Sequence record: NC_106597.1
Direction: 5' to 3' (one strand)
Length of the DNA: 64,000 nucleotides
Source: Escherichia phage BB1
Made by a program: the position numbers and the translations under genes. Each line of letters opens with the position of its first letter. Within the stretch, counting starts at the first letter, position 1. The notes under the pieces were generated by a model. It worked only from the letters and a program-made list of their open reading frames with translations. It was not told the origin of the DNA and did no database searches. This document shows positions 1,767-43,513 of the stretch, in pieces.

Positions 1767-1843
1767 TGGCGTCCTGTGCGGGGATCGAACCCACAAATCC
1801 TACCTTGAAAGGGTAGTGACTTTACCAGTTTGTCTAACAGGAC
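1767..1843 (-). tRNA. tRNA-Glu (anticodon UUC)
   Basis: Manual fold: perfect acceptor (gtcctgt/acaggac), anticodon stem ctacc/ggtag with loop rc of ttgaaag, T-loop TTCGATC, encoded CCA. Confidence 0.75.
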
Positions 1844-2325
1844 TTAAATTGCTTATTGGATAGATTGTTAAACTCGGAAAGTATTTCGTTTACACCTCTG
1901 TCTAACACTACCCATTCATTAAGCCGTTCAGGAAAGCTATTATGAAGCATTTTCTCCGCTTCTCTAGCATTAAACCAAAATGACCAATGTATTAACTTAT
2001 AATCACGTAAAGGAGAATAGGTTTGGTAATTTCCTAATCTTGTTTTAGGATCAGAAGACATACCAATTTTTACATAGTTATCCCAAGCTGGGTTAGTTAT
2101 TGCGTAAATAAAACCACAGCTGGATTTTTCTCCAATACTTTTGTTATACTTGATAAAAGATAGTGCAGATAACTTCAAGCTATATCGACGATTACTATCG
2201 CGACCAAAGTTAGCTGTACCGAATGTGAGGCTTTCTAACATTAGATCTTTGTTTATATCAGCTGGTGAACCCAACTGTATAATACCCCTATTTGCAGCTT
2301 CTTGAATTATCCGATCAATATACAT
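1834..2325 (-). CDS. T5orf172-type GIY-YIG-like domain protein (putative homing-type endonuclease)
   Basis: 163 aa; motif CGFIYAITNPAWDNYVKIGMSSDPKTRL resembles the GIY-YIG/T5orf172 core; AAAGGTAAAGG RBS; stop codon overlaps the 5' end of tRNA-Glu. Confidence 0.55.
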   Translation of the reverse strand: MYIDRIIQEAANRGIIQLGSPADINKDLMLESLTFGTANFGRDSNRRYSLKLSALSFIKYNKSIGEKSSCGFIYAITNPAWDNYVKIGMSSDPKTRLGNYQTYSPLRDYKLIHWSFWFNAREAEKMLHNSFPERLNEWVVLDRGVNEILSEFNNLSNKQFKSC

Positions 2326-3484: not shown

Positions 3485-3670
3485 TTATCCTCGTTCAATA
3501 TCTAGGGAAATACCGCAGTTAGGATTAATACCTGTACCGTTGCAATTTGAACAAATCCAGATATTGCAAAAAGTATCTCCTGCTTCTGCATCAGAACTTT
3601 CACCAATTCCCCTACATTCAGGGCAGGCACATTCTTCTAGCTCTTGCTTGAGTTCTTGAAACTTAGACAT
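3485..3670 (-). CDS. small Cys-rich zinc-ribbon-like protein (61 aa)
   Basis: CxxC...C...CxxC pattern (CACPECRG...CNIWICSNCNG); AAGGAG RBS. Confidence 0.5.
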   Translation of the reverse strand: MSKFQELKQELEECACPECRGIGESSDAEAGDTFCNIWICSNCNGTGINPNCGISLDIERG

Positions 3671-3679
3671 ATAGTCTCC

Positions 3680-3868
3680 TTAGTCAATTACTTTTGAGGC
3701 TTCAAGGGAGTCGATATAGTATACGTTTTCTACCATAATCATATAATCTGCCACTTTATCCATAGCTTGGGCCTCAGAGGTAGCTCTGGCTAACCTATAT
3801 CCTTTTTTATATTCATCCGGGTATTCTCTATCTTGAATAAACACAACATAAACTATGTATAATTCCAC
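3680..3868 (-). CDS. hypothetical small protein; start uncertain (GTG at 3868 or ATG at 3763)
   Basis: Track ORF 3680-4015 overlaps tRNA 3888-3965, so truncated to the first plausible start after the tRNA with a GGGGA RBS. Confidence 0.3.
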   Translation of the reverse strand: MELYIVYVVFIQDREYPDEYKKGYRLARATSEAQAMDKVADYMIMVENVYYIDSLEASKVID

Positions 3869-3887
3869 TTGTAATCCCCTAATTAAG

Positions 3888-3965
3888 TTGGTGGCTCCCC
3901 GAGGATTCGAACCTACGTACCTTCCGGTTATGAGCCGGGTGCTCATACCATATGAGCTTGAGAAC
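3888..3965 (-). tRNA. tRNA-Met or tRNA-Ile (anticodon CAU)
   Basis: Manual fold: acceptor GGTTCTC/GGGAGCC (with G-U), D-arm GCTC/GAGC, anticodon arm CCGG-CTCATAA-CCGG; T-stem only 3 bp; CCA encoded. Confidence 0.55.
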
Positions 3966-3971
3966 CAAAAT

Positions 3972-4065
3972 CTGGAGGAAGATGCCAGACTCGAACTGGC
4001 ACACCATGTTTCCACAGTTACTGGCTGTTTAGCAAACAGCTCCCTTACCTTTAGGGTTAATCTTC
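3972..4065 (-). tRNA. tRNA-Ser (anticodon GCU)
   Basis: Manual fold: perfect acceptor GGAAGAT/ATCTTCC, 3-bp D-stem, anticodon arm GCTGT-TTGCTAA-ACAGC, long variable arm, T-arm GCCAG-TTCGAGT-CTGGC, CCA encoded. Confidence 0.65.
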
Positions 4066-4087
4066 CGAATTTATAAGATATATTATA

Positions 4088-4609
4088 TTAGAAATTTAGC
4101 TTCATAGCAAGAAAATTTTTCAAGTTTTCGGTAGACATCTCATCTACATCTACAGGAGAAACAAAGCCGTTTAATTTTCTAGCAAATTTTTCACCATCGG
4201 GATCATTGTCTCCAACAGCTACCAATTTAAAAGGTAGTAATTTCAGTTGCTTTAATAACGCTTTTCCTGGAGAAGAACCCAACATTGCTAGGGCTGGATA
4301 ACCAGCGTTATGTAACGCAACTGCCTTAAATACAGATTCAGCAATCAATACTACTTTTTCATCTCCATTGAGAGTTTCTAGTCCCCATACACACTGGGTA
4401 GTAGAATAAGTAAAGTATTTAGCTTCAAAGGGGCACTTACCATGACCTTTTGGAGCAGAAGGATTATAAGTTTGATAGCCCCTCAACATCCCAGAGAAGT
4501 CATACAACGGGACTGTTAGCCATCCTTCTGGACTTAACCAGCAATGATATTTATCTGTATCAAATCCCCTAGATAAGAGGTGCTGTGTTAGCTCATCAAC
4601 ATTCATATT
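4088..4609 (-). CDS. Toprim-domain-like protein (about 173 aa)
   Basis: Conserved-looking E (IAESVF) and DxD (VGDNDPDGEKF) resembling the Toprim fold; start moved to MNVDELTQ with GAGAGGAACC RBS downstream of promoter 4637-4665. Confidence 0.45.
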   Translation of the reverse strand, partial: NMNVDELTQHLLSRGFDTDKYHCWLSPEGWLTVPLYDFSGMLRGYQTYNPSAPKGHGKCPFEAKYFTYSTTQCVWGLETLNGDEKVVLIAESVFKAVALHNAGYPALAMLGSSPGKALLKQLKLLPFKLVAVGDNDPDGEKFARKLNGFVSPVDVDEMSTENLKNFLAMKLNF

Positions 4610-4665: not shown

Positions 4666-4781
4666 TCAAATTTTTTAACTTTTTAGAGGAAAATCATAGG
4701 GCACTTAAGGGTAGCAGATAAGTGGTGAGGACCAAAATTTGTGACCCCACTAAAAATCCGGGGGCAATTTTTAAAGACCCC

Positions 4782-4810
4782 TTGACATTTTCGCTGGGGT
4801 AGTGTAAAGT
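4782..4810 (+). promoter_or_regulatory. sigma70-type promoter (TTGACA-17-TAAAGT) sharing the 13-mer TTGACATTTTCGC with the element at 34512
   Basis: Consensus -35 at 4782-4787; 17-bp spacer; -10-like TAAAGT at 4805-4810. Confidence 0.5.
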
Positions 4811-4872
4811 ATATGTTATGGATGAGTGATCAAAGAGACACACATTTTCTATATACTAGGAGGTGTCAAAAA

Positions 4873-5859
4873 ATGACAGAAGAAGTAGCTAAGAGTCCTG
4901 AGACCGTCGCTAGCGTTGCAGCAGAACTGCACCGTCACGAGGAATCAGATAAGAAAAAGTGGGAGAAGGTCAGAGCCTACGAAGAAAAACATCGTGAACA
5001 CGATGATGAAGAAGATGACGATGATGAACATTGTCATAAATATGGAAAACATAAAATGCAAGAACCAGTAAACGTATTCACTAGTGGCTTCCCTGGCCTA
5101 CTGGGTGGTTACCCAGCAAACGCAGGTGCTTTCGGTGGTGAAGGTATGGGACTATTCGGAGCTATCCTAATCGGTGCTCTATTAACAGGCGGATTCGGTG
5201 GTTTCGGTGGATTCGGTGGACGTGGTGTAGTTGGTGAAGGTACCGCAGTTGATGCGGTACTTCAGAACCAAGATACCGCTAGTATTCTAGCAGCTATTAA
5301 CACTACTCGTACAGAAGCTAATCAGGGTACTGGGGCTGTGTTAAGCGCAGTTAACAATGGTTTTAGCCAGACATCCCAAAACCAGAGCCGTGATACTCAG
5401 TCTGTACTAACTACGATTTATGGTACAGGTGCTAATCTGTCTAATCAGATCTGCCAGGAAACTCGCAACGTTATTCAGGGTCAGTTCGATCTTTCTCGCC
5501 AGATTGATCAATCTTTCGCAGCTAACCAGATAGCTCGTGCACAAGATAAATTTGATTCTGCACAGATCGCTTTCCAGCAGACTTTACAAACTAATAACCA
5601 GTTTGCCGCTGTTCAGGCTCAGATGTGTGCTAACCAGAACTCTCTGGAACGTCAGATCGCTGAATGTTGCTGTGAACTTCAGACTGCGATCGCTGGTGTA
5701 ACTACTGCGCGTATCCAGGATGAGTTAGATGCATGTCGCCTACGTGAGGCAATCGCTGCGGGTAATGGTGCTAACGGTCAGGTAATTAATCAAATCGCTG
5801 TAAGTCTTGGTGCAATCACTCAGACTCTGGCTGGTCTGCAGGCTAAACTGCCGGCTTAA
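4873..5859 (+). CDS. low-complexity protein: acidic/His-rich N-terminus, Gly-zipper hydrophobic segment (GGFGGFGGFGG), Q/N/S/T-rich C-terminal region
   Basis: AGGAGGTG RBS 7 nt before ATG at 4873 (track ORF starts earlier at 4813); by eye GC and codon choice look higher than neighbours. Confidence 0.6.
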   Translation: MTEEVAKSPETVASVAAELHRHEESDKKKWEKVRAYEEKHREHDDEEDDDDEHCHKYGKHKMQEPVNVFTSGFPGLLGGYPANAGAFGGEGMGLFGAILIGALLTGGFGGFGGFGGRGVVGEGTAVDAVLQNQDTASILAAINTTRTEANQGTGAVLSAVNNGFSQTSQNQSRDTQSVLTTIYGTGANLSNQICQETRNVIQGQFDLSRQIDQSFAANQIARAQDKFDSAQIAFQQTLQTNNQFAAVQAQMCANQNSLERQIAECCCELQTAIAGVTTARIQDELDACRLREAIAAGNGANGQVINQIAVSLGAITQTLAGLQAKLPA

Positions 5860-6616: not shown

Positions 6617-7564
6617 TTACTTGTTACGCATATCCATGATCATTTGACCATCGTAGCCAGTACCTACCACAGTCTGAGGTACACCACCTTGATACTTCTG
6701 AGCACGGATCATTTCAACTTCCAATTGCTTCCAACGAATCATCTCAGGAGTAATGGTACGTTGCAATGCGGCGTTAGCTTCAGCTTCTTTCTTAGCTGCG
6801 TACAGTTTAGCATCTGCGTCACGTTCATTAGCAATAGCTTGGTTGTTACGAGCTTCACGATCTGCTTCTGCTTGTTTAACTTTTTGCTGTGCTTCCTGTT
6901 CAACGCGAGCAAGTTCAGCTTTCGCAGCATTAACTTGCTCTTCACGAACTTTGGTATTCTGTACCTGTTCCATGATTACTGGCGGCAAAGTAATATCCTG
7001 AAGGAACACCTGCTTAACTGTGTAACCATATGGGCGTGCATACTCTTCAACTTCCTGTTGAATTGCAGTTTGCAATTGAGCCTGAATTTTAGCATCAAAT
7101 AAATCTTGTGCTTTAGGTACAGACTTACCAAACTCACGAATAGTAGACAGTAATTTTTCAGTTACATACTTGTCTAGTGCCTGATCCTGAGTACCTGCGT
7201 TAATACGGTTAATCGGTGCTTTAGAACCATCAAACTGCAACATAACAGTCAGGTCAACAGTGGATTTAAACTTATCCTGGCTAGGAACCTGAAGTTTATC
7301 TAATTTTACAGCAATATCTTTTGTACTAAAAGTATCGAAAGATGCAAACGGGTTTACAAGATGGAAACCCGGCAATACTGGATTAGGGTCTACTTTACCC
7401 AGGAATGTTTGGGTTTTAACCGTACCATCAGAAACAATAGTATATGAATTAAAAGCTAGGATTAAACCTGCTAAACCAACTACAGCACCAATACCCCAAC
7501 GTTTAATAGTACGAATTACTTTCTGCTCAGAAGTCAGTTCTTTCATATTTTTAGTAGCAAACAT
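6617..7564 (-). CDS. SPFH/band-7 (prohibitin/HflK-HflC-like) membrane protein
   Basis: N-terminal TM helix (IGAVVGLAGLILAF), SPFH-like core, C-terminal Ala/Glu-rich coiled coil; AAAGGAAAT RBS. Confidence 0.75.
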   Translation of the reverse strand: MFATKNMKELTSEQKVIRTIKRWGIGAVVGLAGLILAFNSYTIVSDGTVKTQTFLGKVDPNPVLPGFHLVNPFASFDTFSTKDIAVKLDKLQVPSQDKFKSTVDLTVMLQFDGSKAPINRINAGTQDQALDKYVTEKLLSTIREFGKSVPKAQDLFDAKIQAQLQTAIQQEVEEYARPYGYTVKQVFLQDITLPPVIMEQVQNTKVREEQVNAAKAELARVEQEAQQKVKQAEADREARNNQAIANERDADAKLYAAKKEAEANAALQRTITPEMIRWKQLEVEMIRAQKYQGGVPQTVVGTGYDGQMIMDMRNK

Positions 7565-8172: not shown

Positions 8173-8250
8173 TCTTACCGACCGTAGGATTCGAACCTAC
8201 ATCTTCCACCAGTTACGGCTTGATAATACCAATTATACTAGGACGGCAGT
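8173..8250 (-). tRNA. tRNA-like element (possible pseudo-tRNA)
   Basis: Canonical T-arm GTAGG-TTCGAAT-CCTAC but no CCA, mismatched acceptor and no clean anticodon arm. Confidence 0.3.
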
Positions 8251-8470
8251 GTTACTACATAAGTGATTTCCACACCCCACTATTTATAAATCAGAGAAGA
8301 GTTTAGGGGAGAGGTTTCAGACGCCTCATTTTACACGTTCTAGCCACTAACCGGGATTGCCGCCCCCTGTGTACTAGTTTTACAACTAACCCACCGACTC
8401 TATTCAATGCGCTCCGGTTGGGATTCTGCACTCAGCGTAATCGGCTCGCTGTTCCCTAATTTATGAATAT

Positions 8471-8499
8471 ATTATACAGAATTTATAAGCATTTAGCAA
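8471..8499 (-). promoter_or_regulatory. early promoter (minus sense TTGCTA-17-TATAAT)
   Basis: attata 8471-8476, 17-bp spacer, tagcaa 8494-8499; conserved caatttatgaa downstream. Confidence 0.65.
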
Positions 8500-8507
8500 A
8501 TGAATTT

Positions 8508-8942
8508 TTAGAAAAATTCACTAGCAATCAAAGCAGTTGTTTTACCGTCATAACGTCCTGGAAACTCTGCCTTAATGGTTTTCATTAAGAGAGCTTTGGT
8601 AATGCCGGGGTTTAGCTTAACCAGTTCTGCAAAGTATTTACGAATTTCAGTTTCAGTCAGTTGACTTGGCTGATACTCTTGCAGCATGGAATAAAGCAGT
8701 TGCTCATAGTCTACATCAGTAGGGACTTTCGTACCAACTTTAATAGCGCGCTGTTTTGCATTTTCTAGAGCCTTAATCTGAGCTTTCAGATAGGCTACAA
8801 ACTCGGTTCGAGTAACAATGTCTTTATCAATACGTTGCAGGTCGCCAATCATGGTCTGAAGATTAAGTGCCCGCTCTTTATCACCGTGAGTACGTGCTAG
8901 ACTAAGCAGTCCACGAAGGGTCGTTAGGATATTTTCACCCAT
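8508..8942 (-). CDS. hypothetical protein (144 aa)
   Basis: ORF; start overlaps stop of upstream small ORF (TAATG). Confidence 0.5.
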   Translation of the reverse strand: MGENILTTLRGLLSLARTHGDKERALNLQTMIGDLQRIDKDIVTRTEFVAYLKAQIKALENAKQRAIKVGTKVPTDVDYEQLLYSMLQEYQPSQLTETEIRKYFAELVKLNPGITKALLMKTIKAEFPGRYDGKTTALIASEFF

Positions 8943-9112
8943 TATTTCATCCCCAATGCTTGGTTAAAAGATTGTTCTGTCATAACTGCTGAGACTTTGG
9001 CGAAATCAAACTTTTTAGGGTTCGTAGTGATTTCAGCAACGTTAGAAGTTTTAACAGTTTTCGTAGTACGAATACCGCGAGTGTTAACACCAATAATTAC
9101 AACTGATTTCAT
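8942..9112 (-). CDS. hypothetical small protein (about 56 aa), below ORF-track cutoff
   Basis: Hand-translated MKSVVIIGVNTRGIRTTK...; strong RBS AATGAGAGGAAGCGAAAT before ATG. Confidence 0.45.
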   Translation of the reverse strand: MKSVVIIGVNTRGIRTTKTVKTSNVAEITTNPKKFDFAKVSAVMTEQSFNQALGMK

Positions 9113-9143
9113 ATTTCGCTTCCTCTCATTAATTTATGAAAGT

Positions 9144-9172
9144 ATTATACAGAAATTTAAGTATTTAAGCAA
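9144..9172 (-). promoter_or_regulatory. early promoter (minus sense TTGCTT-17-TATAAT)
   Basis: attata 9144-9149, aagcaa 9167-9172. Confidence 0.6.
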
Positions 9173-9180
9173 ATAAATTT

Positions 9181-9648
9181 TTAAGTTTTAGTGACAACAG
9201 GTTTATAAAATGTATGTCCCTTAATCTTAGTTGTTTTCTTAAACTTCTTTGTCCAGTAAGGTTTATCTTTACCGCTATGAAAGTATAACGCTCCATATGT
9301 GGGATCTTGCGGTAAATCAACGTAGTATATCACTCTAGCTAAATTCTTAGCGGTTTGCCAAGCCTCATCAGTTTTATCAACTTTTGGTCTCTTAGATACC
9401 CAAGAGAACTGGTTAGACTGATATACTACTTTACAGTAGGAATCCGGGAATTTACCGGAGTTTACACGGTTTTTAGTAACATGTGCAATCGCCGTCATTC
9501 CCTTTATGCCCTCACCACGACTTTCGAAATAGATATTTTTAGCAATGCAATCTATTTCTTTTGCATCGTGCGATGCCTGACTACTAAAGCTGAAGGTAAG
9601 GGCAGCTACTAAAAGCAAAGCTGCCTTCATTCTTTTTACTCCTGCCAA
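9181..9648 (-). CDS. secreted cell-wall hydrolase, SleB-like
   Basis: N-terminal signal peptide (MKAALLLVAALTFSFSSQA); motif IAKNIYFESRGEG...VYQSNQFSW typical of the SleB/cell-wall hydrolase family. Confidence 0.65.
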   Translation of the reverse strand: MAGVKRMKAALLLVAALTFSFSSQASHDAKEIDCIAKNIYFESRGEGIKGMTAIAHVTKNRVNSGKFPDSYCKVVYQSNQFSWVSKRPKVDKTDEAWQTAKNLARVIYYVDLPQDPTYGALYFHSGKDKPYWTKKFKKTTKIKGHTFYKPVVTKT

Positions 9649-9953
9649 TCATATTCAACACGATTGGGATTTTCTTTATACCCTAAGTCAAGCAAATCAT
9701 TACGCATATTTTGCTTAGCTACTGGGTTCGAGGTTACTAGTACCACTTTCTTTGGTCTCTGCCCAAATTCTAAGAGTAAACGAAGAATTTGATAACCTTC
9801 CATACCATCTACCGCCAAGTCATTATCCATATAAACGAAGTGGCCTGTGGTATCAGTTTTATTCAGAAACTCTACAGCGGCTTCTGGGGTTCGAATGATA
9901 ATGTCCATTCCGTGAAGATTACGCACATCATCAATCAAAATATGAAAAGTCAT
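9636..9953 (-). CDS. stand-alone receiver (REC/CheY-like) domain protein, tentative
   Basis: 105 aa with alternating beta-alpha pattern, acidic pocket (ILIDD...MDNDL) and KKVVLVTS motif; ACGAGG RBS. Confidence 0.4.
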   Translation of the reverse strand: MTFHILIDDVRNLHGMDIIIRTPEAAVEFLNKTDTTGHFVYMDNDLAVDGMEGYQILRLLLEFGQRPKKVVLVTSNPVAKQNMRNDLLDLGYKENPNRVEYDWQE

Positions 9954-9982
9954 AATAGCCTCGTTTCATCAATTTAAAAATA

Positions 9983-10011
9983 TATTATACAGATAACTTA
10001 GTAAATTAGCA
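9983..10011 (-). promoter_or_regulatory. early promoter (minus sense TTGCTA-17-TATAAT)
   Basis: attata 9983-9988, tagcaa 10006-10011. Confidence 0.6.
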
Positions 10012-10395
10012 AATACATTTTTAAATTGTGAAACTAGTAAACCGATAAACAGCCTAGAGGCGCCACAGGCCATATCTTATGAGCCATGTACCTTTGATCT
10101 AGGGTTTGAATCATCAACGAATACTTTGCATCTTTTAGCTTTAGAAGTTTAGAAGTTTGAGTTCTTTAAACTTTTCAGCTTTCATACTTAAATGTTGATC
10201 TTTGAAGTTGTGTCGGTAATATCAACGACGCTTTGTTCTTACGTGTCAGCTTAAAAGGCTGGTGTAATAAACATAATCTCCAATAGATTATACTTTATAG
10301 TATGGTCAGCGGTCTTATTTAACCTCGTATTTCAACCGCTGCTGCGAGGTAAGATGCTTGGGCTTTCGTCTACCGATTTACTAGCTTTTAAATTA

Positions 10396-11034
10396 TTACT
10401 CTACTTCAATGAAGGTAGAGGCGTTAGACTCGGACAGAACAAAGTCAACATTTGTTGCAAAGTCCTGATATTCCTCGTCATGCTGCTTAATCAGCTTTTC
10501 CAGTTCCAGCGGATCAATCAAGAATGGGGTATTCTTGAGTTCTAGCAGGTTGAGCTGCATTTTAACTTCATCTTCGGAAGTTTTCTTATCGCGGGTAGCC
10601 ATGCTATCCTGCAAACGCTCATATTTAGCATCAAACTGTGCTTTCTGCGTATTAAACTTAACCGTAGCGGCATGGAACTGCTTACGCATGTTAGCCAGCA
10701 GTTGGGCTTTAAGTTCCATAGAACGCTTAGCTTCAATTGCTTCCGCAACAGTCATCTTACGAGAGCCAATCTCAACGATTGTTTCCGCATTGCTTTTAAT
10801 CAGAGCAGCTTTGATACGATCACGCTGGGACATCATATCCAGCAGAGACTGGAAATCAGTCTTAATACGAGTAGACAGATCAGCTACTTCGATTGCAGCG
10901 CCAACTACAACCTGGTTTTTATCCTTACCTTCACCAACAGCGATCAGAAGCTGCTGTTCAGTAGCTTTACGGATTTTAGCTTCCAGAGATTTGATAGTTG
11001 CCAGAGCGCGAGTTTTAGAAATACGAGTAGTCAT
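10396..11034 (-). CDS. hypothetical protein (212 aa, coiled-coil-rich)
   Basis: ORF with AAGGAAG RBS. Confidence 0.55.
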   Translation of the reverse strand: MTTRISKTRALATIKSLEAKIRKATEQQLLIAVGEGKDKNQVVVGAAIEVADLSTRIKTDFQSLLDMMSQRDRIKAALIKSNAETIVEIGSRKMTVAEAIEAKRSMELKAQLLANMRKQFHAATVKFNTQKAQFDAKYERLQDSMATRDKKTSEDEVKMQLNLLELKNTPFLIDPLELEKLIKQHDEEYQDFATNVDFVLSESNASTFIEVE

Positions 11035-11087
11035 TATTTGCTTCCTTATATGAAGTTTGAGATTTGAATTTGTTTAAAGTTGGTCTA

Positions 11088-11270
11088 TTACAGACCAATT
11101 GCCAGCAGAGTGCGTAGAACAGTATCGTTACTGTTATCAATTTTAGGATTAGCACGATTTAGCAGATCAAAGATTTTCTGGACACCTGATTGACGTTCAG
11201 CCATACGACGGATACCCAGATTACGAGTAGCTTTCTTACCATTTTTACGAACATTTTTAGATACTGGCAT
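11088..11270 (-). CDS. hypothetical small basic protein (60 aa)
   Basis: ORF with AAAGGAAAA RBS. Confidence 0.45.
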   Translation of the reverse strand: MPVSKNVRKNGKKATRNLGIRRMAERQSGVQKIFDLLNRANPKIDNSNDTVLRTLLAIGL

Positions 11271-11340: not shown

Positions 11341-12042
11341 TCAAATTTTCATTTTTTCGATCATAGCTGCAACACAATAGCTCTCAACTAAGGCATCAAA
11401 TGCTGGGTCGTGCTTAACCGGATAGATCCCATAACGAATGGTGTCCATCTTCTCCATTTTAGCTTTTGCCCAGCTAATACCCTCAGCCTCTAGATCTTTG
11501 TAACTATAACCAGCTTGCATCCAGAGATTACGAAGAGATCTAACATTGCCCAAATTCCAGAATTTCCACGGAACTACCTCTTCATTGGTTCCAGCATGGA
11601 ACGTGTTTGCAGAGTAGATAGTCATATCAAACTCTGGGCCATTGCCATAATACAGAGCATTTTCGCCTAGAGCCAACTCCATAATATTTTGAGCCATAGA
11701 GAAGGCAGCATAGTTTGAGCCAAATTTATTAGTGCAATGATGTTTACCATTTTGGAAGGCAATCAGTTTTGGATTACGCTCCTTCATAGCTTCCATAATG
11801 TGGATAGCAGACGGGCTATTTTTAGCTTGATCCATCCAGAATGCTAGAGTAGATGCTGTAACTTTGGCACCAGAATTAAGCTGATCCTGCACATCCAAAG
11901 TAACAAATACTAAGTCAGGGTCTTTATCAATCCCATGCATAGCCACAAAAGCGAAAGAAGGCATTGCGATATGAGTAGTACCACAATCTCCTGGAGTTCC
12001 CAGAGATTCAATATCTAGCATACCAAATGGTTTTACTTTCAT
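11341..12042 (-). CDS. DEDDh-type 3'-5' exonuclease (DnaQ-like fold)
   Basis: Exo motifs LDIES (D-x-E), FD, and H-x4-D (HDPAFDA); AAAGGATAAG RBS. Confidence 0.65.
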   Translation of the reverse strand: MKVKPFGMLDIESLGTPGDCGTTHIAMPSFAFVAMHGIDKDPDLVFVTLDVQDQLNSGAKVTASTLAFWMDQAKNSPSAIHIMEAMKERNPKLIAFQNGKHHCTNKFGSNYAAFSMAQNIMELALGENALYYGNGPEFDMTIYSANTFHAGTNEEVVPWKFWNLGNVRSLRNLWMQAGYSYKDLEAEGISWAKAKMEKMDTIRYGIYPVKHDPAFDALVESYCVAAMIEKMKI

Positions 12043-13218: not shown

Positions 13219-13668
13219 TTAATTTATTAACTGTAAGCTTCTTTTAATTTCAGACCTTACCTGCATCAAAAGAACTCCTAAAGTATTGTCCCCGATGCCT
13301 CGGCAAACACCCCAATATGTATCTCCCCAGGTATTTCCTTCGATCAAAGTTACATTTTTTGTTGCTAACAGTTTGTCTCTCAAATCAGGGATTGCAAACT
13401 TTAACCGTAAAAGCTCTAGCATTACATCATCTTTTACCTTATCCCAGTCAGAGCGTAGAGTTAATTTACGTCCTCTACGTTTGGCAACTCCTGCATTTAG
13501 GGAGCGTAGTACATGAGCTACATCATCTTTTTGGTCGGATTTCATAGCCTGAAAAGCATGTTCTACAGTATCAGCATGCCATATTTCATTTAGATATTCG
13601 AAAGTAATTGGTGATAAGTAAAAGTTAGATAAAAAACTATAAGTACCTTTAAATTCAGTAATCTTCAT
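13219..13668 (-). CDS. NADAR (YbiA-like) family protein
   Basis: Motifs YSFLSNFY and EHAFQAMK characteristic of the NADAR/DUF1768 family. Confidence 0.7.
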   Translation of the reverse strand: MKITEFKGTYSFLSNFYLSPITFEYLNEIWHADTVEHAFQAMKSDQKDDVAHVLRSLNAGVAKRRGRKLTLRSDWDKVKDDVMLELLRLKFAIPDLRDKLLATKNVTLIEGNTWGDTYWGVCRGIGDNTLGVLLMQVRSEIKRSLQLIN

Positions 13669-42152: not shown

Positions 42153-43501
42153 AGGTTGTTATATCTAATAAAGCCTATTTCAAGCCCGATGATGAACTTT
42201 GGGATTACTGTAGTAAGCAAACCACTTATCACATAGAGACAATGACTAGTAAATACCCTATTATGTATAAGAATAGTGGTGTTGTTGCCAAAGAGATTAA
42301 GTGGATTCCTATTACGCGTCTGGACTTACTAGATGCTAAAGGAGTAAAATACGAATTAGTCGATAAACGCACATTAGCTCCAGTAGATATACCAAAACCT
42401 AAGTTCAAGCTGCGTGAAGAAGACCAGCTCCCAATATATGAAGAGTGCGATGATACCTGTATTATTAATGGTAAGCCTGGATTTGGCAAAACTATCCTAG
42501 CTCTTGCACTTGCATATAAATTTGGCCAGAAAACTTTGGTAATTTGTACCAACACATCTATTCGTGAAATGTGGGCGGCAGAAGTTCGTAAATGGTTTGG
42601 GTTTGAACCAGGTATCATAGGTTCTGGGAAATACAATATTGATCCACCAATTGTGGTCAGTAATATTCAAACAGTGAATAAACATGCGAATAATCTTTCT
42701 AAAGTATTCGGTACTGTTATAGTTGATGAAGTTCACCATTGTGTGGCTACAACTTTCACTAACTTCCTAGAAATATCATGTGCCCGCTATAAGATTGGAC
42801 TATCCGGTACATTAAAACGAAAAGATGGTCTACAAGTTATGTTCAAAGATTTCTTTGGATATAAGATCTTTAGTCCGCCGGTTAATAATACTGTTGCACC
42901 TACAATCCATAGGTACTCCGTGCCTGTTGAGTTATCGGGTAACCAAAACGTACCATGGGCATTACGTGCTAATGATGTGTATAATCATCCTGAATATCGA
43001 GAGACTATTATAAACCTGGCGCATTTATATGTGAATATGGGGCATAAAGTGCTCATTGTAAGTGACAGAACAGAGTTGATCCAAACAGTACTAGAAGCTC
43101 TTGCACAGCGTGGTGTTACAACATACGAAATTATAGGGGCAACCCACTTGGATGACCGATTAAAAATTCAGGAAGATATAGCAAAAGGTGGACCTTGTGT
43201 ACTTGCAGCAGCTCAAAGTATCTTCTCTGAAGGTATTTCCCTTAATGAGCTGTCTTGTTTAATAATGGGAAGTCTCATTAATAATGAATCTCTAATCGAA
43301 CAGCTTGCAGGACGTGTTCAACGTATTGTCGATGGTAAACTCGACCCTATTGTTGTAGATCTAATTATGAAAGGTGGCACTGGACTAAGACAGGCTTCCG
43401 GACGTATGGCAGTATATCGTAACAACGGGTGGAAAACTATTACCATGACTCCGGAAAAAGCAGTTCAATTAGCTAAAATTGCATTTGGCAACAGCTCATA
43501 A
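42149..43501 (+). CDS. SF2 (DEAH-type) helicase
   Basis: Walker A GKPGFGKT, Walker B VIVDEVHH, C-terminal helicase motifs. Confidence 0.85.
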   Translation: MKVVISNKAYFKPDDELWDYCSKQTTYHIETMTSKYPIMYKNSGVVAKEIKWIPITRLDLLDAKGVKYELVDKRTLAPVDIPKPKFKLREEDQLPIYEECDDTCIINGKPGFGKTILALALAYKFGQKTLVICTNTSIREMWAAEVRKWFGFEPGIIGSGKYNIDPPIVVSNIQTVNKHANNLSKVFGTVIVDEVHHCVATTFTNFLEISCARYKIGLSGTLKRKDGLQVMFKDFFGYKIFSPPVNNTVAPTIHRYSVPVELSGNQNVPWALRANDVYNHPEYRETIINLAHLYVNMGHKVLIVSDRTELIQTVLEALAQRGVTTYEIIGATHLDDRLKIQEDIAKGGPCVLAAAQSIFSEGISLNELSCLIMGSLINNESLIEQLAGRVQRIVDGKLDPIVVDLIMKGGTGLRQASGRMAVYRNNGWKTITMTPEKAVQLAKIAFGNSS

Positions 43502-43513
43502 ATGATGTATAAT
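43485..43513 (+). promoter_or_regulatory. early promoter (TTGGCA-17-TATAAT) at 3' end of helicase gene
   Basis: -35 43485-43490, -10 43508-43513, followed by conserved ataaatttgagagag leader. Confidence 0.55.

Follow-up and report, generated by a model that had tools for sequence, protein, structure and literature searches.

Bacillus SleB requires muramic-δ-lactam cortex peptidoglycan. Its activity as a lytic transglycosylase depends on a catalytic Glu (PMC12331253). In the Vequintavirinae, lysis has been linked to a SleB-like protein with a signal peptide whose expression is toxic to E. coli (PMC7344957). The characterized endolysin of phage T5 is an M15 peptidase (mentioned in PMC7344957 and PMC11180984). 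The cREC domain (cyclic-phosphate-processing receiver domain) was defined by the Aravind group, and its phosphoesterase activity is a prediction of the defining papers; PMC7824862 and PMC9503650 report that its members are never found with histidine kinases.

The window analysed here is a stretch of 64,000 nucleotides from Escherichia phage BB1 (NC_106597.1). It belongs to a T5-like phage and shares 98.8% DNA identity with Salmonella phage FGS009 (a Tequintavirus). Two minus-strand open reading frames, at the positions given in the initial annotation, are homologues of the phage T5 genes T5.084 and T5.083. The first is a cREC gene at 9636..9953 (105 aa; Pfam PF20274, phrog_1479) and the second is a SleB-like (Hydrolase_2) gene at 9181..9630 (149-aa precursor; Pfam PF07486); the ORF and domain matches are far beyond chance. 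The longest ORF for the SleB-like gene spans 9181..9648, and translation probably begins at the ATG at 9630 and yields a 149-residue protein that opens with MKAALLL. A Shine–Dalgarno sequence (AGGAG) was read from the sequence at 9639..9643 on the minus strand, within the final cREC codons; inspection of the sequence ahead of the alternative TTG start at 9648 revealed no such element. The cREC stop codon (9636..9638) and the ATG at 9630 are separated by a gap of five bases.

A consensus scan located a σ70 early-type promoter at 9984..10012 on the minus strand (TTGCTA, 17 nt, TATAAT; 10 of 12 matches), and the T5 annotation places a promoter at the same site (record positions 43067–43141). This predicted promoter drives a two-gene unit made up of the cREC and SleB-like genes. 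The next promoter, equivalent to T5 'P-D/E 33', was placed from the sequence and the T5 annotation at 9113..9180 on the minus strand (TTGCTT, 17 nt, TATAAT). Transcription of the adjoining unit, with DUF7616 and a YqeY-like gene, begins from it, and it bounds the cREC–SleB-like unit on the 3' side. No intrinsic terminator was predicted within 8400..11200. Both genes are already known as annotated, conserved accessory genes of T5-like phages and are present in hundreds of genomes; a search by gene name in the literature library used found no relevant paper naming T5.083 or T5.084. In our preferred reading, to which we assign a probability of roughly 0.6, a single σ70 promoter would serve an early T5.084–T5.083 unit of two unrelated accessory genes, one encoding a cREC phosphoesterase and the other an exported auxiliary SleB-like enzyme, and the two would be neighbours by synteny only.

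The T5.083 homologue is a single-domain SleB/Hydrolase_2 protein. It was matched to Pfam Hydrolase_2 (PF07486) over the entire profile (positions 1–100 of 100) with 89 bits (cutoff 27, E = 3.4e-25), and profile matches to PDB entries 4f55 and 4fet were obtained at ~1e-20 with 28–31% identity. The AF2 model (pLDDT 91.5) was superposed by Foldseek on the catalytic domains of 4f55 and 4fet with a probability of 1.00 and TM scores of 0.71–0.79 (normalized to the target). The catalytic Glu, E36 in the motif YFESRGE, is invariant in 30 homologues and occupies the place of the first ESRGE Glu of 4f55 and 4fet; by residue count along chain 4fet_B it corresponds to Glu151 of B. anthracis SleB. The C-terminal H-x-F-Y motif is also kept. 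The protein differs from SleB proper in having no N-terminal peptidoglycan-binding domain and in its score against the spore_SleB equivalog TIGR02869 (50.4 bits, below the cutoff of 236.5), of which only the C-terminal half (79–201) was matched. By homology, it is predicted to be a lytic transglycosylase, and it is assumed to cut the ordinary peptidoglycan of Gram-negative bacteria. With a pI of 9.7, the mature protein is basic. A Cys28/Cys66 pair is conserved in its clade, with Leu/Ser at those positions in Bacillus SleB; such conservation fits a putative periplasmic disulfide.

The N-terminus of the T5.083 homologue was analysed by sequence rules for a Sec signal peptide: a positively charged n-region, an h-region of 7–15 residues, small residues at −3 and −1 and no lipobox. 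Residues 1–19 (MKAALLLVAALTFSFSSQA; 9574..9630, minus strand) were predicted to form such a peptide, with cleavage between A19 and S20. Met-Lys is followed by 15 uncharged residues (A3–S17), and S17-Q18-A19 immediately precede the predicted cut before S20 (SQA/SH). The n-region carries a charge of +1, the mean hydropathy is 2.69 over ten residues, and Ser and Ala occupy positions −3 and −1, respectively. There is no lipobox because the first Cys is residue 28 and is preceded by E-I-D. A SAR endolysin is marked by an uncleaved, weakly hydrophobic N-terminal TM segment of about 18–22 residues that is rich in Gly, Ala and Ser; by sequence rules, the present protein is probably not of this kind, having a core of 13–15 residues, rich in Leu, Val and Phe, followed by a conserved A-x-A-type site. 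The signal-peptide pattern is likewise found in about 27 of the 30 homologues. The initial annotation had described the enzyme as SleB-like, with a signal peptide that looks cleavable and is unusual for a canonical endolysin. The enzyme type and the signal are supported, and the protein is not the canonical endolysin: in the nearest relative a holin/M15 endolysin/spanin cassette is found about 20 kb away, at 20–23 kb, outside this window. Its suggestion of a role at entry is not supported, as the protein would be synthesized in the infected cell under an early promoter and exported from the inside, and so would not be virion-borne. For its other suggestion, a superinfection factor, nothing in this analysis gives a pointer.

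As an exported auxiliary enzyme, the T5.083 precursor would leave the cytoplasm via Sec without the need of a holin, signal peptidase I would cut after Ala19 and the mature protein would attack peptidoglycan in the periplasm. It would thus act as a second wall-cutting enzyme alongside the holin/M15-peptidase/spanin cassette, and it would most likely contribute to lysis by weakening or remodelling the wall in the course of infection. Export of an active wall-cutting enzyme from an early promoter ought to risk premature lysis, which counts against this explanation.

It is unlikely that the protein is itself a real holin-independent endolysin, or a SAR endolysin tethered until depolarization, and as such sets the timing of lysis. 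Its hydrophobic N-terminus would suit this role, as would the 'endolysin' label of its PHROG family and the link of the Vequintavirinae protein to lysis and toxicity. T5-like genomes, however, have a complete lysis cassette elsewhere, in which the M15 peptidase is already the characterized endolysin (mentioned in PMC7344957 and PMC11180984). A short Leu-rich core with a conserved small-x-Ala site behind it, as here, is what cleaved signal peptides typically show, unlike SAR anchors, and the gene is part of an early-type promoter unit distant from the holin: the genes around it are cREC, DUF7616 and the YqeY-like gene, with no holin or spanin adjoining.

Quite unlikely, in our estimate, is a function of the exported hydrolase in superinfection exclusion or envelope remodelling (for example disabling the entry or envelope-spanning machines of rivals) and not in lysis. 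Such a function would accord with the early-type promoter and holin-independent export, and other large phage contigs repeatedly carry small SleB-like genes with a signal peptide in their early or nucleotide-metabolism regions, outside lysis cassettes. Nevertheless, no mechanism connects glycan-strand cleavage with exclusion, and the T5 receptor is already blocked by the phage's own Llp lipoprotein.

The T5.084 homologue is 96% identical to T5.084 and is a cREC protein: it scores 56.8 bits against Pfam cREC_REC (PF20274; cutoff 27, E = 3.8e-15), and the precomputed PF20274 assignment is present in all 32 of its 32 close homologues. The family spans phages with widely differing hosts, and most of its members are stand-alone proteins of about 100 aa. 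D8, D9, R21, D43, D45, G53 and N76 are invariant in the family, the aspartates having been checked across 49 diverse members. The invariance of the residues that the family has beyond those of receivers (R11, D17, R21, D45 and N76) suggests an enzyme active site. In line with the published prediction for the family, T5.084 would be a cytoplasmic stand-alone cREC in which a trimmed receiver fold with an acidic triad most likely forms a small phosphoesterase. Its candidate substrates, purely as a prediction, are 2',3'-cyclic RNA ends or ADP-ribose-derived cyclic phosphates, and the protein would then belong to phage RNA repair or counter-defence.

Distant cREC loci were found with a 12-sequence cREC alignment, and their gene neighbourhoods were compared with that of the window. 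One run of genes (locus L042) consists of Tad3, one further gene, cREC, an AAA_33 kinase, an Rnl1-type RNA ligase and two phosphoesterases; in locus L008 cREC sits between two Sequestin (3'cADPR sponge) genes, and tRNA genes adjoin it in KVP40-like phages and in locus L053. Within the window, a NADAR gene lies 3.3 kb from cREC. Outside T5-like phages, the products of genes adjoining cREC mostly lack a recognizable domain. The RNA-repair and NAD contexts come from a few other lineages, and in T5-like phages cREC has no neighbouring RNA ligase or sirtuin. A Sequestin gene or remnant was also sought in the gap upstream of the cREC gene of the window, where tblastn returned chance hits only.

Directly upstream of the cREC gene, at 10031..10387 on the minus strand, is a structured RNA of about 360 nt that carries no annotation and shows strong covariation. 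It always follows a gene of the T5.085 family and occurs in several unrelated phage families; the alignment comprised 485 columns. The copy in the window matched no Rfam family at E values up to 10, no match was found in E. coli genomes, and pattern scans of viral and metagenome collections recovered close T5-like copies and nothing else. A reduced RNase P RNA, an idea that arose from the stretch GGYUCAUAAGRUAYGGCC, was considered and rejected: the 21-nt match in a local alignment to E. coli M1 RNA scores 22 and shuffled sequences reach up to 25. This RNA is probably a more useful lead than the two genes beside it.

A different grouping would place cREC in an RNA-end-processing or counter-defence unit with the upstream RNA and the T5.085 homologue, and would leave the SleB-like gene as a passenger. 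The T5.085 protein and a Y-RNA-like RNA would then form an RNA–protein particle comparable to Rsr–YrlA–RtcB, and cREC would resolve cyclic-phosphate ends. We give this grouping little credence. Linkage of cREC to the T5.085 family was not found outside Demerecviridae, and no YrlA was detected in the vicinity of cREC at the eight loci checked outside that family, of which two are KVP40-like.

Receivers insert helix α1 into the DHp domain of the kinase for docking. The AF2 model of the T5.084 homologue (pLDDT 91) has a receiver-like fold and no output domain. DSSP assigned strands at residues 4–7, 18–20, 39–42, 69–72, 92–94 and 100–103 and helices at residues 23–32, 53–62 and 77–90; there is no helix between β1 and β2 (α1 is absent), and a strand takes the place of α5. 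Against Response_reg (PF00072) the sequence scored 12.5 bits (E = 0.17), below the cutoff of 30.2, and hhalign of cREC to CheY gave a probability of 1.5%. In the profile alignment D43, T74 and N95 correspond to D57, T87 and K109 of CheY, respectively, and D8/D9 fall at the site of the DD pair. Thr74 is present in the T5.084 homologue and is not invariant in the family, while the position of the Lys is variable across the family; of the receiver quintet, the Asp triad is present and the conserved Lys is absent. No histidine kinase was found near cREC in any locus examined.

We consider it very unlikely that the 105-aa protein functions as a single-domain receiver of the CheY type, taking phosphate from host histidine kinases or serving as a phosphate sink or decoy for them. 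The receiver-type fold, the invariance of the acidic triad D8/D9/D43 and the alignment of T74 with CheY T87 would be expected of such a protein, and phosphorylation from small-molecule donors would likewise fit the triad. The Response_reg score far below its cutoff, the lack of the kinase-docking helix α1 and of α5, the lack of a conserved Lys at the K109 position and the additional invariants R11, D17, R21, D45 and N76, which are not receiver features, argue against it. So do the reported separation of the family from histidine kinases and its spread, mostly as small stand-alone proteins, over phages of very different hosts. The initial annotation had proposed a CheY-type receiver without an output domain that might titrate or mimic host phosphorelay components, and had named conservation of the phospho-acceptor Asp as a check. 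The receiver-like fold without an output domain stands and the Asp is conserved (D43, aligned with D57), but the family is PF20274 and not PF00072, and titration or mimicry is not supported, given a family reported to occur without histidine kinases, the missing α1 and α5 and a non-conserved Asn at the K109 site. The features of T5.084 seem to fit neither a phospho-switch nor a kinase decoy.

In Demerecviridae, cREC is immediately followed by the SleB-like gene at 30 of 33 loci. A gene is inserted between the two in loci L008 (Sequestin) and L014 (HNH), they lie 2.8 kb apart in My1, and Sugarlandvirus and DU_PP_V carry the SleB-like gene without an adjacent cREC. Outside Demerecviridae, 18 cREC loci were examined and no SleB-like gene lies within 4 kb in any of them, and the distributions of the two families are largely different (492 phage records for cREC versus 1375 for SleB-like proteins). 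The adjacency is lineage-specific synteny and not a functional pairing. That the two genes form one functional module, with cREC for instance regulating, modifying or chaperoning the exported hydrolase, is hardly credible: the shared promoter, the Shine–Dalgarno sequence of the second gene inside the first with its 5-nt gap and the frequent adjacency in Demerecviridae would favour a module, but one protein would be cytoplasmic and the other exported, the arrangement tolerates intervening mobile or accessory genes, and the pair is separated in My1, reduced to the SleB-like gene in Sugarlandvirus and DU_PP_V, absent from the more distant cREC loci and drawn from families with differing distributions.

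As posed, the finding matters little, as it concerns conserved and already annotated genes, and the pattern of an exported SleB-like enzyme has been noted in other coliphage groups. T5 is nevertheless a tractable model with a stand-alone cREC and would be convenient for a first biochemical test of the cyclic-phosphate hypothesis; its cREC could show whether the gene counters tRNA-cleaving or ADP-ribose-signalling defences. The locus also raises the question of why, in many large virulent phages, early or metabolic regions should encode a small exported lytic enzyme separate from the lysis cassette.

Bacillus SleB and CwlJ (PDB entries 4F55 and 4FET) share with T5.083 the catalytic-domain family and fold, the Glu of E-S-R-G-E and the H-x-F-Y motif. 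Unlike Bacillus SleB, the phage protein has neither the N-terminal peptidoglycan-binding domain nor a YpeB partner, and the Cys pair conserved in its clade is absent from the Bacillus enzyme. The substrate of T5.083 must differ from that of Bacillus SleB because the host has no spores and no muramic-lactam cortex. The SleB-like proteins of the Vequintavirinae (for example Pectobacterium phage CB7 gp83 and Cronobacter phage CR3 gp87) resemble T5.083 in their small domain, predicted signal peptide and Gram-negative host, with about 40% identity in the domain; the toxicity in E. coli (PMC7344957) concerns the CB7 protein. The Vequintavirinae proteins are discussed as lysis enzymes and have an adjoining candidate holin, whereas T5.083 is a second enzyme encoded far from a complete cassette. 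The T5 endolysin T5.040 (an M15 L-alanyl-D-glutamate peptidase) acts in the same phage on the same polymer, but it has another fold, cuts another bond, carries no signal peptide, depends on a holin and is encoded beside it.

In comparison with CheY-type receivers (PF00072), T5.084 lacks α1, α5, the Lys at the K109 position and a kinase partner, and has extra invariant Arg, Asp and Asn residues. Some relatives within the cREC family have RNA-repair or NAD/ADPr counter-defence neighbours, whereas the cREC of T5-like phages adjoins a cell-wall hydrolase and, compared with the described cREC contexts, has no Nudix fusion and no RNA ligase or sirtuin beside it. With the cREC domains (PF20274) T5.084 shares a score above the cutoff, the conserved aspartates and the stand-alone form found in phages.

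The two genes seen by the initial annotation at 9181-9953 are both present as minus-strand open reading frames, the cREC gene (T5.084 homologue) at 9636..9953 with a 105-residue product and the SleB-like gene (T5.083 homologue) at 9181..9648 in its longest form. For the latter, ATG 9630 was taken as the likely start (149-residue product) because inspection of the sequence placed AGGAG at 9639..9643 in front of it, within the final codons of the cREC gene, whereas the other possible start, TTG 9648, has no AGGAG-type site before it. The surrounding 2.7 kb stretch shares 98.8% identity with Salmonella phage FGS009 (Demerecviridae, Tequintavirus) and is matched by 445 phage records. Phage T5 has T5.084 annotated as hypothetical and T5.083 as endolysin, and promoters are annotated on both sides of the unit, one just upstream of T5.084 and one just downstream of T5.083. 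The counterpart of the upstream one of these promoters lies before the cREC gene at 10012..9984 (minus strand; TTGCTA, 17 nt, TATAAT); no intrinsic terminator was predicted near the two genes. The T5 annotation and this promoter thus define a unit of two genes under an early-type promoter, in a well known phage group, and the finding of the genes is itself already known, both being annotated in hundreds of genomes.

The 105-residue protein scored 56.8 bits against Pfam cREC_REC (PF20274; cut-off 27) and 12.5 bits against the classical Response_reg family (cut-off 30.2). In its modelled fold α1 is absent, with no helix separating strands 1 and 2, and strands replace α5 at the C-terminus. Among 1.84 billion proteins an exhaustive cREC profile search found 433 cluster representatives, the majority of them stand-alone proteins of ∼100 residues; in the few that are longer, the additional part is an HNH domain or matches no recognisable domain. 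Among 49 diverse members D8, D9, R21, D43, D45, G53 and N76 are invariant and R11, D17, G47 and P67 are close to invariant. Profile alignment with CheY, which is statistically weak and consistent with the fold match, paired D43 with D57, T74 with T87, Y92 with Y106 and N95 with K109; the Lys conserved in true receivers is not conserved in the cREC family. The proposal of a CheY-type receiver thus holds for the receiver-like fold and the phospho-acceptor Asp (D43), and fails on the Response_reg score, the two helices and the Lys. Titration or mimicry of host phosphorelays was not borne out: the kinase-docking helix and the Lys are absent and the family avoids kinases, so that a kinase decoy is unlikely. 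The Aravind group defined cREC as a 'cyclic-phosphate processing Rec', reported that it never occurs together with histidine kinases, listed associations with RNA ligases, Nudix, sirtuin and other NAD/ADP-ribose enzymes, and described it as experimentally uncharacterized (PMC7824862, PMC9503650). No structure has been solved for any family member. The additional conserved Arg, Asp and Asn residues suggest a substrate-binding active site, and the 105-residue protein is regarded as a candidate cREC enzyme.

The SleB-like protein matched Pfam Hydrolase_2 (PF07486) over the entire model with 89 bits (cut-off 27) and was assigned to PHROG family 938, labelled 'endolysin'. A PDB profile search with 30 homologues gave SleB catalytic domains (4f55 and 4fet; E ∼1e-20) as its sole matches, with YFESRGE of the phage protein aligned opposite YGESRGE; the AlphaFold model (pLDDT 91.5) superposed on the same entries with TM 0.71-0.79. 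E36 is invariant in the 30 homologues. [quoted passage not shown] The protein is not an orthologue of spore SleB: it lacks the N-terminal peptidoglycan-binding domain and reaches 50 bits with the equivalog model (cut-off 236.5). A rule-based check of the N-terminus found M-K, 15 uncharged residues and then S-Q-A|S-H, with no lipobox; the Ala at −1 of the predicted cleavage site is conserved in T5-like homologues and a comparable signal-like N-terminus is present in ∼27 of the 30 homologues. The description as a SleB-like enzyme with a cleavable-looking signal peptide was thereby upheld. Cys28 and Cys66 are conserved in the clade, where Bacillus SleB has Leu and Ser; on sequence grounds this would fit an oxidizing compartment. 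The predicted mature protein is basic (pI 9.7).

A role at entry, as had been suggested for this enzyme, was not supported, because the protein is made inside the infected cell. The closest relative has its holin, M15-type endolysin and two spanins clustered at 20-23 kb, ∼11 kb past the left end of the window, and the SleB-like protein is therefore a second wall-cutting enzyme. A 'lysozyme, holin and cell wall hydrolase SleB' appear in the published description of AKFV33 (PMC3326045), a 2024 survey noted that T5-like Salmonella phages have two endolysin ORFs, of which the SleB-type lies well away from the holin (PMC11180984), and signal-peptide SleB-like proteins have been described in Vequintavirinae, the protein being toxic in E. 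coli (PMC7344957). The domain is present in 1375 of 50 697 phage records, and distant small homologues with signal-like N-termini were found on phage-like contigs amid nucleotide-metabolism genes, outside lysis cassettes.

The SleB-like gene immediately follows cREC in 30 of the 33 Demerecviridae loci examined. Sequestin (PF21825, anti-Thoeris) is a 3'cADPR sponge (bioRxiv 10.1101/2025.07.12.664507). In a metagenomic T5-like phage (L008) two Sequestin genes (4763-4993 and 5331-5546) flank cREC, one preceding it and the second separating it from the hydrolase; a single Sequestin gene lies between the pair in Enterobacter phage KKP_3711 (L082, 1897-2154), and none is present in the window. An HNH endonuclease gene is inserted between them in another phage locus (L014:4324-4788), 2.8 kb separates them in Pectobacterium phage My1, and in Sugarlandvirus FZ41 and DU_PP_V the hydrolase gene lacks a neighbouring cREC. 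No SleB-like gene was found within 4 kb of cREC in any of 18 loci from other phage groups. It was concluded that the pairing is synteny inside Markadamsvirinae and no functional module. Homing-endonuclease traffic was seen at this locus (L014 and L049/L050), the latter with a 273-residue ORF (3491-4312, protein P0111) in which an in-frame fusion joins HNH_3 to a divergent cREC (∼51% identity).

The neighbours of cREC outside T5-like phages were mostly uninformative. The clearest RNA-repair/counter-defence setting is a run on a viral contig (L042:2840-7010) that starts with Tad3, which inhibits Thoeris, and an unknown gene and continues with cREC, an AAA_33 kinase, an Rnl1-type RNA ligase and two calcineurin-like phosphoesterases (Metallophos_2, then Metallophos). 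In KVP40-like phages cREC adjoins tRNA clusters, with a DUF2828/DUF7788 'RNA-binding protein' ∼1 kb away. The window carries a NADAR-domain gene (13219..13668, minus strand, 77.7 bits) between the RNase H and DUF7022 genes, 3.3 kb from cREC; T5 lacks it at the corresponding position, where T5.090 is followed directly by T5.089, and it is a variable accessory gene of the early region of cREC. These contexts, together with the Sequestin genes of L008 and the Rv2179c-like exoribonuclease and YqeY-like genes near cREC in the window, agree with, and do not prove, a role in RNA-end or ADP-ribose-signal processing.

RNA-related genes were abundant around the locus. Minus-strand neighbours are an Rv2179c-like 3'-5' exoribonuclease (11341..12042, annotated 'exonuclease'), a YqeY/GatB-like protein (8508..8942, 'tRNA amidotransferase'), an SPFH/Band_7 protein (6617..7564, 'lipoprotein') and a T5orf172/MUG113 protein (1834..2325). 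An Rfam tRNA match at 8176..8247 (minus strand; 35.5 bits, gathering 29), not called by ARAGORN, sits in the counterpart of T5 'RNAX', a 719-nt stable RNA of unknown function. On the viral contig L042 a sub-threshold group I intron match (637-954; 36.1 bits, gathering 50; E 1.5e-5) precedes the operon of cREC and the RNA ligase.

Between the stop codon of the T5.085 homologue (which ends at 10396) and the cREC promoter lies a 380-nt stretch (10013..10395) holding an unannotated structured RNA candidate of ∼360 nt (10031..10387, minus strand). It contains no ORF of at least 40 residues on the gene strand and is bare of annotation in most listed records, a few having small hypothetical ORFs. The stretch was found in 450 phage records, with stronger conservation than in the flanking 2.7 kb; further copies lie in T5 (NC_005859, ∼43122..43504) and in the phage loci L082:1196-1579, L046:6721-7116, L083:1192-1586 and L084:485-880. 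The gene-strand RNA folded with −98.2 kcal mol−1 (z −4.5 versus shuffles), and RNAalifold predicted 48 pairs from eight copies of five lineages. In an independent count over these pairs 95.8% of cells were paired, versus 33-44% with partners slid by 1-3 columns, and both sides had changed in 30 of the 48 pairs, versus 3-7 in the slid controls; none of 500 shuffles reached these values. The ∼28-bp closing helix exists in at least five different, covarying sequence versions, including that of the unrelated Vequintavirinae phage 4MG. G-U pairs, which arise on the gene strand only, number 3-8 per copy, two of them invariant, and A-C mismatches are nearly absent, a pattern that indicates a gene-strand RNA rather than a DNA element. 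No Rfam family matched the T5 copy.

The candidate is invariably found immediately 3' of a T5.085-family gene, whatever gene comes next: cREC in T5, Sequestin in L008, SleB-like in My1 and DU_PP_V, and tRNA-Thr in 4MG, whose protein is 40% identical to T5.085. In several phages the ribosome-binding site of the next gene is 10-15 nt past the helix, which makes an RNase III-type intercistronic processing element the rival explanation. The T5.085-family gene of the window (10396..11034, minus strand; phrog_1491, with distant relatives L085-L088) is often labelled 'tail fiber protein' but is located amid early genes, and its product matched no Pfam or NCBIfam family. The family occurs in 738 phage records, with hosts that include E. 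coli, Pseudomonas, Erwinia, Vibrio, Bacillus, Lactococcus and Clostridioides. In every case examined, four distant examples among them, an unannotated gap of 380-560 nt follows the gene; in those four it adjoins tRNA clusters or an RNA ligase gene. This suggests a conserved protein-plus-RNA module.

All homologous gaps, those of Gram-positive phages included, share an array of U[CUA]AA[AC]G motifs at their centre, repeated every 7 nt (∼10164..10205, minus strand, in the window; for example UCAAAGA UCAACAU UUAAGUA UGAAAGC UGAAAAG UUUAAAG). Most copies have 5-7 motifs, and My1 and KB57 have three, versus 1.4-2.0 expected; the array could hold putative repeated protein-binding sites. The window showed no Ro60/TROVE gene. 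The gap of Erwinia jumbo phage Deimos-Minion (L087:1653-1716) gave a sub-threshold Rfam match to YrlA, the bacterial Y RNA (44.5 bits, gathering 69; E 3e-7). A GNCGAAN0-1G motif has been reported close to the 5' end in bacterial Y RNAs (PMC4201824), and GACGAAAG of the T5-type RNA, at 10363..10370 (minus strand) on the 5' strand at the apical end of the long helix, fits this motif. The favoured reading is a new structured RNA candidate, perhaps of Y-RNA type, whose dedicated partner would be the T5.085 protein.
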